A stretch of 17,346 nucleotides of DNA from a virus, in the UHGV virus genome UHGV-1699866; one strand, given 5' to 3'. Under the pieces are notes generated by a model. It was given only the letters and a program-made list of their open reading frames with translations, made no database searches and was not told where the DNA came from. Shown here piece after piece: positions 9,065-15,591 of this stretch. The stretch's first letter is position 1. Each line of letters starts with the position of its first letter. A program made the translations under genes and the position numbers.

Positions 9065-10921
9065 CTATATGGTTACGCCTTTACTTATAACTCTACGGCG
9101 TCTTCTACGTATACCTGACGAGTTCTGCACATACACATTACCTCGCATTTCCTGTTCGGCAAGCCAGTTAAAATTAGGGTTCAGAATTTCCATCGCGGCA
9201 GTTGCATAGTTACGGCAATCAAGAGGCTCGTTACGCTCGTAGACTTTCACCCACTTTTCTTTTGTCTGCCCATTTTTATATTCAAATATTTTTTTCTCTG
9301 ATAATAATCCTTTAAAGTATTCGGTATCATATCCTCTGTCAGAATCTAATGGGAAATGCATATAACCAGGACCAGGATCATGTAGTTTAATTCTTGCCAT
9401 GATGGTCCCTTTACCATCATCAACCCCCAAATTAAACAACATAGCACCCACACGGTTATTATTACTTGGCTTTCCTATAAATGGTAAACCTACCCCACCA
9501 CGCCCCCTGATAGAGTATATTCGCCTTGATTCTCTCGGCTTAGTAAAGCGATATACCTCTGTCGTAAAATGCCCACCAGAGTCAATACAAACGGAAGAAA
9601 TCTGTAATTTTCGACCGTCACGGAATGACCAGCTACGGAGTAAGTATTCATCAAGTTGTTTCCAGACAACATCTTGTGCGGGATCACCTGGGAATATTTT
9701 ATATTCTATCCCCCATGACTCCTTACCTTTTCCCCAACCGACCAATTCACAAACTAAATACGTGTCCTGTACGTCAACACCAGCACTTAACAATAAAACA
9801 TCATCTGGTAAAAACTCTTCAAACCTTATTCTGCGTTGCAACAAGTATTCAGGATCGATATCGTCTTTAGCATCCTCTTTCCATGGCTCACCCAGCTTAA
9901 GGTTAATAAACTCCATTAATCCATTTTTATCGCGGTTTCTGGTTGCTTCCGTAAATTCTTCAACCAGCTCTGACAATGCAACCCACGGGGAGTAAAGACT
10001 GTTAATATGAAAACCAACAATACCTTTAACTCCAGTATGTTCAGCTATCCATACCCCCTTCGCCAACCAATCAACGTCTGGTTTACCAGATCCGCGCATA
10101 ATCCCGCCGCACTCACAGCACTCATATCTGGCCGTTTCCGGTAACGCCTCACCTGAATCGCTCTTATCCCATCTGACTTGCGACCATTTCATCACCTGCA
10201 TGGTGCCACAACATGGGCAAGGAACATGGTAGTAACGCTGATCGGAGAGCTTAAACCACTTGTGGATTTTGCTTGTTTCCTCCAAAACAGGAGTAGAAAC
10301 AAAAACTTTCTTACGATTATGAAAGTTGGTAGTACGCTGAATACCTAGTTTTAGTGGGTCGCCCTCCTGCGTCACACCGTAACGATCAATCTCATCAGCT
10401 AACAGTATTCGAATTGGCCTGGATGCAAGACCTGCTGGGGAATTAGCACCAACAAGTGCTATATATCCACCAGCGTAATGCTTCATACGTATAGTCGTGC
10501 TGGACTTTTTGGCTGCACCGCGCCCCTCTTTCCCTTCATGCAGCTTGTGTTTCAAACCAGGGGAATATTTGAACGTCGGATCAATACGCTCTTTTGAAAA
10601 AGCCTCAGCCGCCTCTACCGTTGGATAAATCATCAACTGAGGAGATGGCTCCTGATCTGCAAAGTAACCCATAACATTTAGCTGTAATTCGGATTTACCA
10701 ATTTGCGAGCTACATTGCATCACTACTGTTTCTGTATCAGCGTCACCAATAACATCCATTGGTTCACGCAAATATGGCACTCGGCTTGTACGCCACGGCC
10801 CTGGCTCTGGAGACGTTCCCGGCGCTACATGACGATACTTATCAGCCCATTCGGAAACAGTTAGCCGTGATTTAGGGCGAAGCGCACGGAAAAAAGCGGT
10901 GCTCCATACTGTTTCGCCCAT
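9065..10921 (-). CDS. Terminase large subunit, lambda gpA family
   Basis: 618 aa; Walker-A-like QCSSQIGKSE; VPCPCCG (cf. lambda VACPHCG), CIDSGG (cf. CWDTGG) and NEPLDC (cf. NEALDC). Confidence 0.85.
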   Translation of the reverse strand: MGETVWSTAFFRALRPKSRLTVSEWADKYRHVAPGTSPEPGPWRTSRVPYLREPMDVIGDADTETVVMQCSSQIGKSELQLNVMGYFADQEPSPQLMIYPTVEAAEAFSKERIDPTFKYSPGLKHKLHEGKEGRGAAKKSSTTIRMKHYAGGYIALVGANSPAGLASRPIRILLADEIDRYGVTQEGDPLKLGIQRTTNFHNRKKVFVSTPVLEETSKIHKWFKLSDQRYYHVPCPCCGTMQVMKWSQVRWDKSDSGEALPETARYECCECGGIMRGSGKPDVDWLAKGVWIAEHTGVKGIVGFHINSLYSPWVALSELVEEFTEATRNRDKNGLMEFINLKLGEPWKEDAKDDIDPEYLLQRRIRFEEFLPDDVLLLSAGVDVQDTYLVCELVGWGKGKESWGIEYKIFPGDPAQDVVWKQLDEYLLRSWSFRDGRKLQISSVCIDSGGHFTTEVYRFTKPRESRRIYSIRGRGGVGLPFIGKPSNNNRVGAMLFNLGVDDGKGTIMARIKLHDPGPGYMHFPLDSDRGYDTEYFKGLLSEKKIFEYKNGQTKEKWVKVYERNEPLDCRNYATAAMEILNPNFNWLAEQEMRGNVYVQNSSGIRRRRRRVISKGVTI

Positions 10922-10926
10922 GAGGT

Positions 10927-11478
10927 TTATTCTTCCTGCTTAATAAATCGGGATTCCTGGAGCGCCTGAAGCGCAAAATTAATCTCGTCTTCAATAATGC
11001 GCTCGATCTCCCTGGCTGTTTTGCCTTCACAACGGGGAGCTGCTCTTGGAGCAATACTAAATAAGCGGCTACGCAATTCATTAGCTGCCAGAAATGCATC
11101 ATCCCTGACCGCATCTTTAGCGATGAGAGAGCCTTCCTTTTCTTCAAATTCAAGGCGTTTCAGCTTTGCCTGATAAATTTTTTCTGCGGTCTTAGCCTTG
11201 TTGAATTGCACCGCAACACCGGAAGTACCACCAGCTAATCCGGCATCATCAGCGGGTAACTCTGGTTGTTCCGAAGATATCCCATGCCCTCTTTTTCCAT
11301 TTTCAGCAGATACCTCACGACCAACCTGTCGGCTCGCTTCATAAGCCGCACTGGCTTTATCAAAATCCAGCTTGCCGCTTTTCAGCACTGGAATGCGACC
11401 GGAACGACAGAGCTTCGTAACCATTGCCGGAGAAATACCTTTCCGGCGGGCAAACTCTGACTTACTGACGATGGCCAT
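10927..11478 (-). CDS. Terminase small subunit (Nu1-like, N-terminal helix-turn-helix)
   Basis: Helix-turn-helix SKSEFARRKGISPAMVTKLCRSGRIPV near the N-terminus; directly upstream of the large subunit; ATG at 11478-11476 overlaps the upstream stop (TAATG). Track start at 11487 is TTG. Confidence 0.55.
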   Translation of the reverse strand: MAIVSKSEFARRKGISPAMVTKLCRSGRIPVLKSGKLDFDKASAAYEASRQVGREVSAENGKRGHGISSEQPELPADDAGLAGGTSGVAVQFNKAKTAEKIYQAKLKRLEFEEKEGSLIAKDAVRDDAFLAANELRSRLFSIAPRAAPRCEGKTAREIERIIEDEINFALQALQESRFIKQEE

Positions 11479-12068
11479 TACTTGCAACCATTAGCAAGAT
11501 ACTGAACAAATCCCTCATGCGTTTCATGCGCGTCGTGGTACTGACGATAAACATCCAGCAACAATGCAATTTCCATATCCGTCGCGGGAATACGTTCTTT
11601 ATCAATAGCCAGGTACTTAATTTGAACAACAGGGGAAGAATTATCGTCTTCTTCCTGCGGCTGTTCATCGCTTAACATTTCGTCAAGCTCTGCATCATTA
11701 AACCCAAGCAGATCAATATCAAAATCATCATCCATTAACTCTTTGACTTCTTCGGCCAGAAGCTGCATATCCCAGCCAGCATTTAAGGCCAGCTTGTTAT
11801 CTGCAATCCTGTAAGCCTTCTTCTGTTTTTCAGAAAGGTTACTCAACCGAATCGCCGGAACTTTATCCATTTCCAGAATTTCGGCTGCTGCAAGCCGCCC
11901 ATGCCCCGCAATCAGTTCATTCTTTTCATCGATCAGCACAGGATTAGTGAAACCGAACTCACGGATACTGTTCACCAACTGTTCAACTTGCTCATCTGAA
12001 TGAGTCCGTGAATTTTTGGCATATCTGAGCAACTTACCGACTGGTAAATATTCGATTTTTAGAGCCAT
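11478..12068 (-). CDS. ParB-like nuclease (ParB/Srx N-terminal) domain protein, paralog 1
   Basis: ParB-N signature ...NPVLIDEKNELIAGHGRLAAA...; translationally coupled to the small terminase gene. Confidence 0.7.
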   Translation of the reverse strand: MALKIEYLPVGKLLRYAKNSRTHSDEQVEQLVNSIREFGFTNPVLIDEKNELIAGHGRLAAAEILEMDKVPAIRLSNLSEKQKKAYRIADNKLALNAGWDMQLLAEEVKELMDDDFDIDLLGFNDAELDEMLSDEQPQEEDDNSSPVVQIKYLAIDKERIPATDMEIALLLDVYRQYHDAHETHEGFVQYLANGCK

Positions 12069-12624
12069 TTTTTAACCGCCATAACACAACAGGTTAAAGA
12101 AAACTGTTTAACTTATTGATACTAAAAGAGAAAAATGACGATCTTTTTACTCATGAAAAATCACACAAACCAGCATAATTATCTGATTTTATTAAGTTTT
12201 TATAAGTAAAAAGGATCTTGCGATGGTGTTTTGGTTAAAAGATTGGATGTATTTGCATGATTTATAACGATTTTTATCAGAACAACATCACATTGGTTAA
12301 AGATCTGCGCGTATCTTGATGATCTAAAAGAAAATTTTCCACTTTCTTTTTACCAGCACAAATACAGAAAAAATCACGTTTTCCCGATATTTTTCAATGA
12401 GATGAGTAAATTTCTTTTACCGCAACTTTTAACCTAACTTTTTTCACGTTTAGCTAGCCGAATATCGGGGTTCGAATGACCCGCATCCAACGCTTTTGTC
12501 CAGAAGGACCCAATTCTGCCGGACGATGAAACGATGCTCGTGCTCCCCCACAGACAGCCAGCGAGCGACGCTACAGAACACAGTGAATACACTCTGCATA
12601 ACAACACCATCAACCACACGATGA
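12069..12624. promoter_or_regulatory. 556-bp non-coding region: GC-rich block (about 12435-12620) plus AT-rich block (about 12069-12434) with iterated motifs; candidate cos/pac and promoter region
   Basis: Only sizeable gap in a dense operon; sits immediately upstream of the ParB-like/terminase genes; contains GGTTAAA x5, a duplicated about 45-bp unit and four GATC sites. Confidence 0.4.
12348..12465. repeat. Imperfect direct repeat (two units, about 67-70 bp apart) of form TTTTACC-GCA-C ... TCACGTTT ... CCGA(A)TAT
   Basis: Unit A about 12348-12390 (TCACGTTT at 12374-12381), unit B about 12415-12465 (TCACGTTT at 12444-12451); read directly from the sequence. Confidence 0.5.
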
Positions 12625-13344
12625 TTAACGAGAGAAGGTCTTGGAAAGAATGTCATCAATAGCCTTTGTGACTTCATCAGCAAACGCATCCTCACCAGCA
12701 CGCAGCGCCACGCCATGCCAATCAAGACGCTGCGAATAGTTAGGTTGCTGGATAAACGTAAGGATCAACGTAGGACGCCGCCCAACGCGCTGCCAGACGC
12801 CTGGTTGAAGCGGGTTACTTGTACCAGGTCGAACAACAAAAAACTCCGTAGGCTTGCCCTGACGGCGATTTTGATGCGCATCTCGCTGAACTCTTAGGCC
12901 AGATAAGACCTGCTGTAATTGCCCCCGCGAAATATTCCCGTATTTGTCCAGCTTTGCGCCGGGACCAGGAGCAATCTGCCAGCCGTTAGGCAAATATCCA
13001 CCAGCCCTTAGCGCCCCTTCTGAGCGTTTGTACTGTCGTTGGCCACCTTCGATTTGCGGAGTCAACGTTACAGGGGCTGGCGTTCCTCCCCATTCACGAG
13101 CATACACAATGGCTGTAGGATCACTCTTCTTTGCGGCCAAAACGTAAGTAGAGTTCTGAATCCACGGCGTGGGCCTGTCAAATACCCGATTAATTTCATT
13201 CTTAATCGCAGCCTGAGAAGCCTTTGCCGTTCTGGTTGCCGCAAGCGCCATTGCGAACGGCAATTCGCGTTCTTCAAGGCGCTGGAGTTGTCGTTGAATA
13301 TCCTGAGAAGAAAAATCCATCTTTATCTCAATTCTGTCAGCCAC
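12625..13344 (-). CDS. Hypothetical protein (239 aa), function unknown; third gene of the ParB-methyltransferase cassette
   Basis: GTG start with strong RBS (TAGGAGG, 5-nt spacer), 16 nt after the upstream stop; Gly/Pro/Arg/Gln-rich; GC visibly higher than the structural genes. Confidence 0.6.
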   Translation of the reverse strand: MADRIEIKMDFSSQDIQRQLQRLEERELPFAMALAATRTAKASQAAIKNEINRVFDRPTPWIQNSTYVLAAKKSDPTAIVYAREWGGTPAPVTLTPQIEGGQRQYKRSEGALRAGGYLPNGWQIAPGPGAKLDKYGNISRGQLQQVLSGLRVQRDAHQNRRQGKPTEFFVVRPGTSNPLQPGVWQRVGRRPTLILTFIQQPNYSQRLDWHGVALRAGEDAFADEVTKAIDDILSKTFSR

Positions 13345-13360
13345 CAGCGCCTCCTACACA

Positions 13361-14734
13361 CTACTTAATCAACGGCCGGAAAGCCGCCAGCACATCATCA
13401 GATCGTCCGATTGTTGAACCACCAGGCAACGGCAACTCAAACTCAAAACGAACAGCTTTCTCCAGACTCGCCCAACTAAGGGAATCATCGTTAATGACGT
13501 GCAAATACCAGCTCTTACAGTTGAATATTGACCGCTTAATCCTGAAACCATGTACACGACACAACTGCTTCACTTCCTCATCAGAGTGAAACTTCTGGTA
13601 AAACCAGTGCCCCTTCCGGTACAACGCGGTAAAACCGTCATGATCAATAAAATAAAGCCGGCTTTTGGAACTCGCCGCTTGTGTTTGCTTCAGGACTGTT
13701 TCCAGTTCTCCACGGCTACGGCCAGAAAAGAATATTGACCCACCAGCTTTACACAGGCCTTTCAGAACCGTCAGAACGGACCATTCAGCCTCGACACTAT
13801 CGACCGAGTTCAAAACGCTATCGCAAATCACGTAGTCGTAACGCCCTCGCGTTTTTAAGTCGTCCACCAGCGTATCAATCATCCGGTTTGTTGCGGCCCT
13901 ATCCAGAGTGTTTCCAGCGCCCTTACGGCGGAAAAGCTCGAGATCATGCAGGTTATATCCCTTTGCCCTGAGCATTCGCGCGTAGTCTCCCTGCCCCGAA
14001 CCAAAATCAATTCCTCTTGGCGTCTTGGCAATGATCGGGAGGATCAACGACTCATACAGATTTGATTTCAGGCTGCCACCATTACGCAACCGCATAAGCT
14101 GCGCATACGTCTGGATGTATGTTGTTTTCTCCAGATGAGAATACTCAAATACACCATAAGTTTTATTCAGATAACTTTGGTATTTTTCCTTCTCAACATC
14201 AGGGATCACAAACACCGTTAGCGGTGTGCGCGTCATTTTCGCTGCTAATGCATACTGAGCACAGTGAATAACCTCACCAGACTGAGTAGCAACACAACCA
14301 CCCCACGGACCATACTTGATAACCAGTTCCGCTATGTTCTTTCGAACATATGCCATTTTCGCGCGCATATTGCCTGAGATCTGGCTTGCCGATACCTGAA
14401 CAAAACCATGCTTATCTTCCAGACCGGACACCCTGCAACGCTCATCTCCGCTATCAAAATCCGTTCCGTTATGCAGTTGGTTAAACCGTACTTCGTCGTA
14501 TACCGTCGTTTCACAGGGCAACACATACACCGCAGCACGCGTTATTCCCAACTTACGTAGCGCCTTCGTCCTTTGGTGTCCCGCCACCAGCAAATCGCCG
14601 CGCACTATCAATGGCTTCACAAGCCCCAGCTCCCTGACGCTTTCCGCCAGCCTCGCAAGATCATCCTCACCGATAAAACGCGGGTTATATTCCGCGCCGC
14701 GTAGGTGCGTTATGTCGTAATTGAGGTGAAGCAT
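13361..14734 (-). CDS. Fusion protein: N-terminal ParB/Srx-like domain plus C-terminal class-I SAM-dependent methyltransferase domain
   Basis: N-terminus YNPR...LVKPLIVRGDLLVAGHQRTKALRKLG (ParB-N); C-terminal half has SAM motif I GIDFGSGQGD and YDYVICDSVLNSV; ATG at 14734-14732 overlaps the upstream stop (TGATG). Confidence 0.7.
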   Translation of the reverse strand: MLHLNYDITHLRGAEYNPRFIGEDDLARLAESVRELGLVKPLIVRGDLLVAGHQRTKALRKLGITRAAVYVLPCETTVYDEVRFNQLHNGTDFDSGDERCRVSGLEDKHGFVQVSASQISGNMRAKMAYVRKNIAELVIKYGPWGGCVATQSGEVIHCAQYALAAKMTRTPLTVFVIPDVEKEKYQSYLNKTYGVFEYSHLEKTTYIQTYAQLMRLRNGGSLKSNLYESLILPIIAKTPRGIDFGSGQGDYARMLRAKGYNLHDLELFRRKGAGNTLDRAATNRMIDTLVDDLKTRGRYDYVICDSVLNSVDSVEAEWSVLTVLKGLCKAGGSIFFSGRSRGELETVLKQTQAASSKSRLYFIDHDGFTALYRKGHWFYQKFHSDEEVKQLCRVHGFRIKRSIFNCKSWYLHVINDDSLSWASLEKAVRFEFELPLPGGSTIGRSDDVLAAFRPLIK

Positions 14735-15357
14735 CAGCACACCTCCCCAGCCAGCAATGCGGATACAAATCCGATATAGCTGCCATTATCATCAACATAA
14801 CGAGACACCGCGCAGTCAAAACGATCCGCTTCCTCATCCGTTGCCGGGATTTTATGACCTCCAAATGACAGGTACTGAACTTTTACGCCTGATTTGGCCT
14901 CATCCTTCTCAAATGGGATATCCATACCCTCTGTGTCATCGTAGACTGCCGCACTCAATAAGTTATCCAGTTCGCGCTGAGTAAAACCAATTGAGTCCAG
15001 AGCAAAATCATCGGCCGCAAGATCTGCAAGCTCCGCGCTTAACAACTCTTCATCCCAACCAGCATTCAGCGGAATACGGTTGTCGGCCAGACGATATGCC
15101 TTCTTCTGATTCTCCGTTAGCCCAGCCAGAACAATGCAGGGAACATCATCCATCCCCAACTGAGTGGCCGCAGCAATTCGACCATGACCAGCAATTACAA
15201 CGTTGTTCTCGTCTATCAGGATCGGATTAGTCCATCCGTACTCCTGTATGCTGGCAACAATCTGATCTACCTGCTCCACGGAGTGTGTGCGAGCGTTCTT
15301 TTCATAACCAATCAACACAGAAAGTGGTAAAGAAACCACATTAAGATGTTTTGTCAT
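14734..15357 (-). CDS. ParB-like nuclease (ParB/Srx N-terminal) domain protein, paralog 2
   Basis: ...NPILIDENNVVIAGHGRIAAA...; about half of the first ~125 aligned residues identical to the 196-aa paralog by eye (not computed). Confidence 0.7.
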   Translation of the reverse strand: MTKHLNVVSLPLSVLIGYEKNARTHSVEQVDQIVASIQEYGWTNPILIDENNVVIAGHGRIAAATQLGMDDVPCIVLAGLTENQKKAYRLADNRIPLNAGWDEELLSAELADLAADDFALDSIGFTQRELDNLLSAAVYDDTEGMDIPFEKDEAKSGVKVQYLSFGGHKIPATDEEADRFDCAVSRYVDDNGSYIGFVSALLAGEVC

Positions 15358-15486
15358 GCCGTTTATCCGCTAAAATCCCCTCGCTTGTGCAAGCAAGTGG
15401 GCCTCGGTTTGTATCCACGGCACCCTGTGGGTATGAATGACTGTCGTCAGGTCGCAACTGACGGCGGTCGCCCACCTTCCAGTAAT

Positions 15487-15528
15487 AAAAAAGCCACCAG
15501 CATTAACTCCACAGCGAGCAGGAGTTAA
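15487..15528 (-). terminator. Possible intrinsic terminator downstream of the 136-aa gene
   Basis: Perfect 8-bp inverted repeat TTAACTCC / GGAGTTAA (15503-15510 and 15521-15528) with 10-nt loop; T6 run on the transcript lies 10 nt after the stem, which is not canonical. Confidence 0.3.
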
Positions 15529-15591
15529 TGAGGCAGCTTTGGTTTGCGCATTATCGCAGCCCCTGATTAGCACAAGAGCTGCTGTAATGCG

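Follow-up and report, generated by a model that had tools for sequence, protein, structure and literature searches.

The window analysed here, that is, the whole 17,346-nucleotide (nt) stretch of the UHGV virus genome UHGV-1699866, carries all its genes on the minus strand. We studied three of them, which encode a small stand-alone ParB/Srx-like protein of 207 amino acids (aa) (ParB207, 14734-15357), an enzyme of 457 aa in which ParB/Srx-type domains are fused to a class-I S-adenosylmethionine (SAM) methyltransferase (the fusion enzyme, 13361-14734, including the stop codon), and a protein of 239 aa (p239, 12625-13344). The window is part of an E. coli phage-plasmid of around 47 kb. The region is 100% identical to the corresponding part of the circular 47.7-kb E. 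coli plasmid pMB9698_3 (NZ_CP103471.1), and shares 99.3-99.4% identity with Escherichia phage vB_EcoM-613R2 and three Yersinia phages. The gene content of pMB9698_3, with RepA and ParA together with a P2-type contractile tail, a lambda-type head and a GpA-type terminase, identifies the element as a phage-plasmid. The region was found in 74 of 5,426 complete E. coli genomes (around 1.4%), and 78 of its 81 places in these genomes were plasmid-borne.

The three genes are tightly packed, exactly as described in an initial annotation made from the sequence. The stop codon of ParB207 and the ATG of the fusion have one base in common (TGATG), and the fusion stop codon is followed by a 16-nt gap with a strong ribosome-binding site (AGGAGG) and by the GTG start of p239, which is conserved among its homologs. 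For the fusion we used the ATG start that yields 457 aa, the 459-aa reading frame from a GTG being merely the longest one. More than 700 full-length homologs of the fusion and 106 homologs of p239 were detected, and the three-gene stretch is undisrupted in 60 of the 62 matching PLSDB plasmids (sizes of around 46-52 kb), so these are real genes and not chance open reading frames.

The fusion enzyme belongs to PHROG 5475, a family of unknown function, with an E-value of 6e-265. Its full-length homologs come from Enterobacterales, Bradyrhizobium, gut Alphaproteobacteria, Bacillota and others, showing 45-60% identity across phyla, and in a set of 20 sequences sharing 45-69% identity around 100 residues never vary, among them motif I of the methyltransferase and its acidic ribose-binding residue. 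The AlphaFold2 (AF2) model of the protein has a predicted local distance difference test (pLDDT) score of 89.5. The N-terminal domain (aa 1-98, 14441-14734) is an intact ParB/Srx domain of the nucleoside triphosphate (NTP)-binding type, with AGHQRT at box II and an invariant R55, and it matches the small-ParB family with an hhalign E-value of 6e-22. It is followed by a second, degenerate ParB/Srx-like domain (aa 99-232, 14039-14440), in which the box II position reads IHCAQY, with loss of the arginine, and which has invariant motifs of its own (FNQLHNGTD, GxWGG and H..QYA). In the AF2 model the strand-helix order of residues 1-90 recurs in residues 110-190, and the alignment of this second domain with the small-ParB family (hhalign probability 91.9%, E 7e-7) keeps 93 columns in register, with IHCAQY opposite GHGR. 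Direct comparison of both domains gave an E-value of only 0.12 with 20 sequences, and of 0.002 with a probability of 12.7% when a larger alignment was used, in such a way that the ParB-like nature of the second domain looks convincing against the small-ParB family profile but not by comparison with the first domain.

The third domain (aa 233-415, 13490-14038), followed by C-terminal helices, is a class-I SAM methyltransferase with DFGSGQGD at motif I and the acidic residue E266. The assignment comes from the match to Pfam Methyltransf_23 (PF13489; 31.9 bits over a cut-off of 27), the GSGQG motif at residue 245 and Foldseek probabilities of 1.00 to many class-I methyltransferases. A regular-expression search found in the fusion neither the (D/N/S)PP(Y/F/W) motif of amino-methyltransferases nor the PCQ and ENV motifs of C5-methyltransferases; no match to PF01555 was obtained, and no cysteine is invariant within the methyltransferase domain. 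Profiles and motif searches therefore agree with the initial annotation, which had read the protein as a ParB/Srx domain (GHQR) joined to a class-I SAM methyltransferase (GSGQG) lacking all these motifs. Structural comparison was tried as a way to narrow the substrate without success, as Foldseek against the Protein Data Bank (PDB) returned only generic small-molecule and tRNA class-I methyltransferases. When the methyltransferase domain alone was searched exhaustively against 1.84 billion proteins, 392 cluster representatives were recovered, and in nearly all of them it occupies residues around 240-460 of a protein of around 460 aa. Stand-alone relatives were sought and almost none exist, so that the clade is essentially confined to this double-ParB architecture. 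The invariant residues of the domain include R269, R270, D305, N309, S310, D312, R339, R373, W377, Q380 and H383, and the presence of five invariant arginines together with W377, Q380 and H383 would fit an anionic or nucleobase substrate.

The protein encoded immediately upstream, ParB207, matches PHROG 620 with an E-value of 4e-74. According to its sequence and partial profile matches, its N-terminal part is a domain of the NTP-binding type carrying GHGR, and a helical segment and then an acidic linker lead from there to a C-terminal domain that is conserved. A paralog of 48% identity over the full length, ParB196, is encoded further downstream in the window (11478-12068), also with GHGR at box II. 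In terms of Pfam ParB_N (PF02195, cut-off 26.3 bits), ParB196 scores above the threshold (33.7 bits), and ParB207 (23.9 bits) and the fusion (24.3 bits) fall slightly under it; the membership of the three proteins in the ParB/Srx superfamily was strongly supported by PHROG 620 or hhalign, with E-values of 4e-74 for ParB207, 5e-75 for ParB196 and 6e-22 for the fusion. The first 150 residues or so of ParB207 and ParB196 correspond to the ParB module of phage N6/N4 (adenine) DNA methylases, with identities of 40-58% over around 135 residues to the module of the ParB-fused enzymes. ParB207 has the layout of the small ParBs, with N- and C-terminal domains and without a DNA-binding domain, and is encoded beside an enzyme, as in the ParB-activated pairs discussed below, and we predict that it is a partner or activator of the downstream fusion.

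The presence of ParB N-terminal domains in a plasmid prophage brings to mind that these proteins could be the centromere-binding proteins of the phage-plasmid. Architecture and distribution effectively refute such a role in partition. No helix-turn-helix motif was detected in ParB207, and the profile of partition ParBs (TIGR00180, curated cut-off 58.45 bits) matches only the N-terminal domain, with 29.8 bits for ParB207 and 16.4 and 40.1 bits for the other two ParB-type proteins, so none of the three has the canonical ParB architecture. Furthermore, the plasmid has its own ParA and a small partner gene around 13 kb away, and the same gene pair is found in integrated prophages of many phyla.

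In order to know which genes accompany the fusion elsewhere, 41 genomic and 80 viral loci with relatives of the enzyme were compared after dereplication to 77 clusters at 85% identity. In 53 of the 62 testable clusters the immediate upstream neighbour of the fusion, on the same strand, is a small ParB207-like gene; in 42 of these 53 cases the two genes overlap, and 7 further clusters have such a gene within 4 kb. A terminase large subunit (TerL) is encoded within 3 kb after the fusion in at least 34 of 57 loci, with a median separation of 1.1 kb, and the gene of the small subunit (TerS) often follows the fusion directly. These terminases are not of one kind: TerL belongs to one of three unrelated families and TerS to at least two. 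The loci span at least eight phyla, Proteobacteria, Bacillota, Planctomycetota, Chloroflexota, Myxococcota, Chlorobiota, Bacteroidota and Melainabacteria, and in an E. coli lambdoid prophage the pair sits between the lysis genes and TerS, on the strand of the late operon. ParB207 and the fusion are, in consequence, a conserved two-gene phage module. The tight coupling proposed for these two genes is borne out by this comparison, and the idea that the cassette had been inserted next to the packaging genes has to be abandoned, as this position is the conserved location of the pair across phyla and not an idiosyncrasy of the window.

Several observations on individual loci can be added. In the lambdoid prophage just mentioned, a gene of the Acb2/Tad1-hairpin family, which comprises anti-CBASS/anti-Thoeris sponges, lies 167 nt upstream of the pair (L047:7997-8233). 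Four Chloroflexota loci (L016, L017, L021 and L022) carry two to three tandem paralogs of the fusion side by side, 39-42% identical to the protein of the window. In around 10 viral contigs of around 17-58 kb (L063, L072, L074, L076, L091, L094, L095, L113, L119 and L121) the fusion starts no more than around 2 kb from one end, which agrees with a location of the pair at the end of the genome or at a prophage boundary in these phages. Between the fusion and the genes of the terminase, a Bradyrhizobium prophage (L048:10936-18196) and a metagenomic phage (L049:10381-11973) carry genes of the Amidoligase_2 and GGACT/AIG2 (gamma-glutamyl cyclotransferase-like) types; as they are on the opposite strand and were seen in these two loci only, we treated them as independent accessory genes.

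A further protein of around 146 aa, named c2 here, adjoins the fusion in 30 of 67 clusters on either strand (for instance L005:11382-11819 and L007:7216-7656) and was seen at these two and about 70 other loci. It has a series of invariant residues (W, K, H-C, G, Y.C.V, N.H and C-R-N) and no match in Pfam or PHROG; its PDB match to a polyubiquitin repeat, with 3 bits per repeat, was discarded as spurious. The gene is absent from the whole plasmid to which the window belongs.

The behaviour of p239 is different. The initial annotation had treated it as the third member of a cassette and had found in it no motif that could be placed, and both points need correction. The protein belongs to PHROG 1924 ("minor tail protein") with an E-value of 3e-97 and shows an enlarged HK97-gp10 fold, its named matches in a viral structure library being a tail component, HK97 gp10 family proteins or Neck Ne1 proteins, even if sequence searches against Pfam (PF04883 included), NCBIfam and PDB sequences gave no match. 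Within the synteny sample, p239 homologs near the pair were found only in close relatives of the window (7 loci in 2 clusters). The gene accompanies the pair down to around 60% identity in the close enterobacterial phage-plasmid lineage, and all other lineages carry the pair without it. Conversely, more distant homologs (29-41% identity) are encoded directly upstream of TerS and a GpA-type TerL in five independent loci without the ParB pair, which places p239 in the GpA-type packaging and head module. Hence, p239 is not part of the ParB module, and the co-inheritance of the three genes that the initial annotation expected holds within one lineage and fails elsewhere, where the pair travels alone. 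In one of the loci examined (L138:4666-5744), the end of a holin gene (Phage_holin_3_5) and the p239-family gene overlap, with TerS and a GpA-type TerL coming next, and in another (L137) the p239 homolog lies 49 nt from the end of the contig.

Judging from the predicted fold, p239 is most likely a virion neck or tail-completion protein. Compared with the HK97 gp10 family and neck Ne1 proteins (PF04883; SaPI1/80alpha neck, PDB 9mu2 chain P), it is about twice as long, has no Pfam or PDB sequence match to the family, and is encoded before cos/TerS instead of among the head-tail connector genes. A purely structural role does not explain the fixed position of this family before cos/TerS nor its invariant polar motifs (DRPTP, GG.R..K..E and YGN). 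Two possible relationships were discarded: hhalign found nothing in common between p239 and c2, and no similarity was detected to a 161-aa virion protein of the connector cluster of which it could have been a paralog.

Downstream of p239, which is the last of the three genes, there is an AT-rich spacer of 556 bp (12069-12624, 36.5% GC). All five copies of the sequence GGTTAAAR in the window are located in it (12070-12434), in both orientations, and three Yersinia phage genome records start and end at around positions 12470-12482 of the window. The clustering of the repeats and the breaks of these records, together with the closeness of the p239 homolog of L137 to a contig end, point to the spacer as the probable cos/cosB region, in which case the three genes would be the last ones at one end of the virion DNA. 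The repeats themselves are probably binding sites for TerS or for ParB196. On the other side of the spacer, ParB196 is followed by TerS (10927-11478, 183 aa from the ATG in the gene limits of RefSeq; PHROG 57, E 7e-42) and by a TerL of the lambda GpA type (9065-10921; Pfam GpA_ATPase 7e-76, GpA_nuclease 1e-84), all of them on the minus strand. The stop of ParB196 and the start of TerS overlap by one base (TAATG, 11476-11480), a junction of the same type as the TGATG between ParB207 and the fusion, and these two junctions suggest that the coupling of small ParBs may not be limited to a single DNA-acting partner. With respect to base composition, the three genes are richer in GC than the head and tail genes (49.7% against 41.4%, with GC at third codon positions of 0.46-0.53 against 0.25-0.40), as the initial annotation had remarked in favour of a separate acquisition; however, the GC content is also raised in TerS (48%) and in the genes upstream of the cassette (46.8%), so that the step in composition does not coincide with the cassette.

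This arrangement raises the possibility that the pair is an accessory of packaging, with ParB-type proteins binding or nicking DNA at or near cos/pac and assisting the terminase as HNH proteins do for HK97-type terminases, and with the methyltransferase marking or regulating the packaging site. A parallel exists in phage P1, where Dam methylation controls pac cleavage. The location of the pair directly ahead of TerS/TerL in most loci, the one-base overlap of ParB196 with TerS, the vicinity of the cos-like spacer and the nicking activity of the ParB domain of the Bacillus ParB-methylase Bce_0392 (PMC5512222) would all fit such a role. However, a specific cofactor of the terminase would hardly be expected to go with three unrelated TerL and at least two TerS families; GpA-type terminases bring their own nuclease, in the window p239 and the 556-bp spacer lie between the pair and TerS, and many phages with the same types of terminase do not have the pair. 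We consider this explanation rather improbable.

On the opposite flank, around 120 nt upstream of the ParB207 start, the minus strand has a terminator-like hairpin followed by a U-run (15481-15540), with a predicted RNA fold of -44 kcal/mol and a z-score of -4.4, such that none of 200 shuffled sequences folded as well. It may be an intrinsic terminator that late transcription must read through; a scan for sigma-70 promoters found none on the minus strand ahead of the cassette, and none after the hairpin. Just past the right end of the window, around 2 kb upstream of ParB207, the plasmid encodes an MT-A70 family methyltransferase (NZ_CP103471.1, 35449-36036), adjoining a tRNA gene, which RefSeq gives as Ile and the Yersinia phage record as Met.

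The position of the pair, between lysis or accessory genes and the terminase, is one rich in morons, and ParB/Srx domains are known from Dnd, GmrSD and other defence systems (PMC5512222), so we also considered that the prophage could carry here a cassette for host protection or superinfection exclusion, a role that the initial annotation had put forward. The only PADLOC (PADLOC-DB v2) hit was to a type II methylase model, which the ParB region matched in part; there was no effector and p239 was unmatched, so that no signature of defence was found. No nuclease or toxin is linked to the genes, which lie on the strand of the late operon and are coupled to structural genes, unlike a lysogenic-conversion unit, and are preceded by the strong hairpin. 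A defence role is, in our view, very unlikely.

Comparison with known systems is more informative. The ParB-fused N6/N4 methyltransferases (PHROG 498, with PF02195 and PF01555; for instance Bacillus Bce_0392 and gp03 of Verrucomicrobia phage P8625) also join an N-terminal ParB/Srx module, homologous to ParB207 and ParB196, to a SAM methyltransferase, and they are likewise phage-borne and often encoded just ahead of the terminase. The fusion described here differs from them in having a Methyltransf_23-type domain without the (D/N/S)PP(Y/F) motif, two ParB-type domains and a separate small ParB upstream. In the case of 5mYOX176/ParB176, the thymine dioxygenase, a post-replicative enzyme, needs the small cognate phage ParB encoded next to it for activity on double-stranded DNA (dsDNA); in ParB176 a linker joins the nucleotide-binding domain to a C-terminal domain, with no DNA-binding domain, and ParBs, glycosyltransferases and terminases co-occur in the thymine-dioxygenase pathways (O'Toole et al., PNAS 2026, PMC13229309). 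Our pair shares with it a small ParB of the same layout encoded beside a (here predicted) DNA-modifying enzyme, and the co-occurrence with terminases. Nonetheless, 5mYOX176 is an Fe(II)/2-oxoglutarate dioxygenase without ParB domains whereas the fusion has two of them, and a dependence of the fusion on ParB207 is a prediction by analogy. Pairs of ParB and TET-associated glycosyltransferase (TAGT, PF20691), such as those of phage vB_EcoS-673R7 and ORF1/ORF2 of Lactobacillus phage c5, offer a third parallel, as a homologous small ParB overlaps the start of the enzyme gene and the pair is located between cos or lysis genes and TerS/TerL, although the partner is a glycosyltransferase without ParB domains and not a methyltransferase. 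Earlier, it had also been proposed that ParB proteins steer the machinery of DNA modification during packaging (PMC8256090).

Databases already contain this protein family and its combination of domains. Fusions of a ParB-CTPase fold with Methyltransf_23 (PF13489), the same Pfam combination as here, were catalogued in 2025 as enriched in phages and prophages, without an assigned function and as "perhaps anti-defense", and NTP binding was assayed with constructs derived from bacteria and phages, ATP binding being reported for a ParB/SAM-methyltransferase fusion (Kaljevic et al., PNAS 2025, PMC12704722). The assayed constructs may or may not belong to this exact family, and in the text consulted there is no mention of a degenerate second ParB domain, a small-ParB neighbour or adjacency to terminases. 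As far as we found, the degenerate second domain, the near-obligatory small-ParB partner and the position ahead of terminases of different families are undescribed.

Taking these data together, we propose that ParB207 and the fusion form a late-expressed, ParB-assisted module for post-replicative modification of DNA by methylation, a proposal that we judge to have about the same chance of proving right as wrong. The module would be expressed with the late genes and would act on replicated phage dsDNA shortly before or during packaging; the role of the ParB-type domains would be to bring the methyltransferase to duplex DNA, keep it there or activate it, with a possible dependence on NTP, and the fusion would transfer a methyl group from SAM to the DNA. 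The likely benefit would be to shield progeny DNA from host restriction or from other DNA-targeting immunity, and, less likely, the mark could be used in packaging. This proposal is based on the conserved pairing and position of the genes, the strong constraint on the enzyme, the ties of the small-ParB family to DNA-modifying enzymes and the precedent of the ParB-dependent dioxygenase. What the analysis shows directly is how the genes and domains are built, that the two genes are paired and that they keep their place ahead of the terminase genes, whereas late expression, a DNA substrate, assistance by ParB and the benefit to the phage are inferred. Phage DNA modification or anti-restriction is accordingly the best supported of the roles offered in the initial annotation.

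There are several points against this proposal. The methyltransferase has none of the motifs of the known DNA amino- and C5-methyltransferases, and its fold is nearer to those of small-molecule and tRNA methyltransferases, so that a DNA substrate is suggested by analogy only. The fusion already has two ParB domains, which leaves the need for a third ParB protein unexplained, and an orthodox MT-A70 enzyme is already encoded on the plasmid around 2 kb upstream. An NTP-gated mechanism is uncertain even for the precedent, since mutations in the NTP pocket did not abolish the activation of the dioxygenase by ParB (PMC13229309). In addition, the minimal functional unit is uncertain, as around half of the loci carry c2, which is absent here. 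A literature search with the protein accessions gave no paper on these proteins, and the term "ParB-methyltransferase" was found in a single, unrelated use.

Some of these points lead to an alternative that we regard as possible but unlikely, a counter-defence that does not act on DNA. The ParB/Srx domains would then bind a nucleotide (an NTP or an immune signal) or RNA that the methyltransferase inactivates or alters, or the enzyme would methylate a host or phage protein. Apart from the kinship of the fold with small-molecule and tRNA enzymes and the missing DNA-methylase motifs, ParB/Srx is a general NTP-binding module, ATP binding is reported for a ParB/SAM-methyltransferase fusion (PMC12704722), and the pair adjoins an Acb2/Tad1-type sponge gene in one E. 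coli prophage. However, the neighbours differ between loci, and every characterised or annotated partner of the small-ParB family acts on DNA.

A bolder form of the DNA-modification proposal, to which we give a low probability, is that the fusion is the catalytic subunit of a new class of DNA-modifying enzymes, NTP-gated and tethered by ParB domains, which together with the small ParB would give phage dsDNA, when it is packaged, a methyl mark distinct from m6A, m4C and m5C. Such a mark could be, for example, at another base position or on the backbone. If this were true, it would provide resistance to restriction and to other DNA-sensing immunity in phages of many phyla.

It was only in 2025-2026 that ParB-type proteins were shown to serve as general modules for nucleotide binding and, in phages, to activate DNA-modifying enzymes. 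The pair described here represents a large, strongly conserved and uncharacterised branch of this ParB-assisted theme, present in prophages of at least eight phyla, and the methyltransferase domain of its enzyme resembles no known DNA methylase. The former three-gene model should be replaced by one of a pair plus an unrelated gene of structural type, as setting p239 apart avoids a misleading picture of the module. Since the E. coli phage-plasmid is genetically tractable, the question of the substrate can be tested directly. If DNA is methylated, the pair would provide phage epigenetics and anti-restriction with a new enzyme class and possibly a new mark, and also a second, chemically different test case of how ParB proteins help enzymes to act on duplex DNA; if it acts on something other than DNA, phages would have in it a counter-defence of a new kind.

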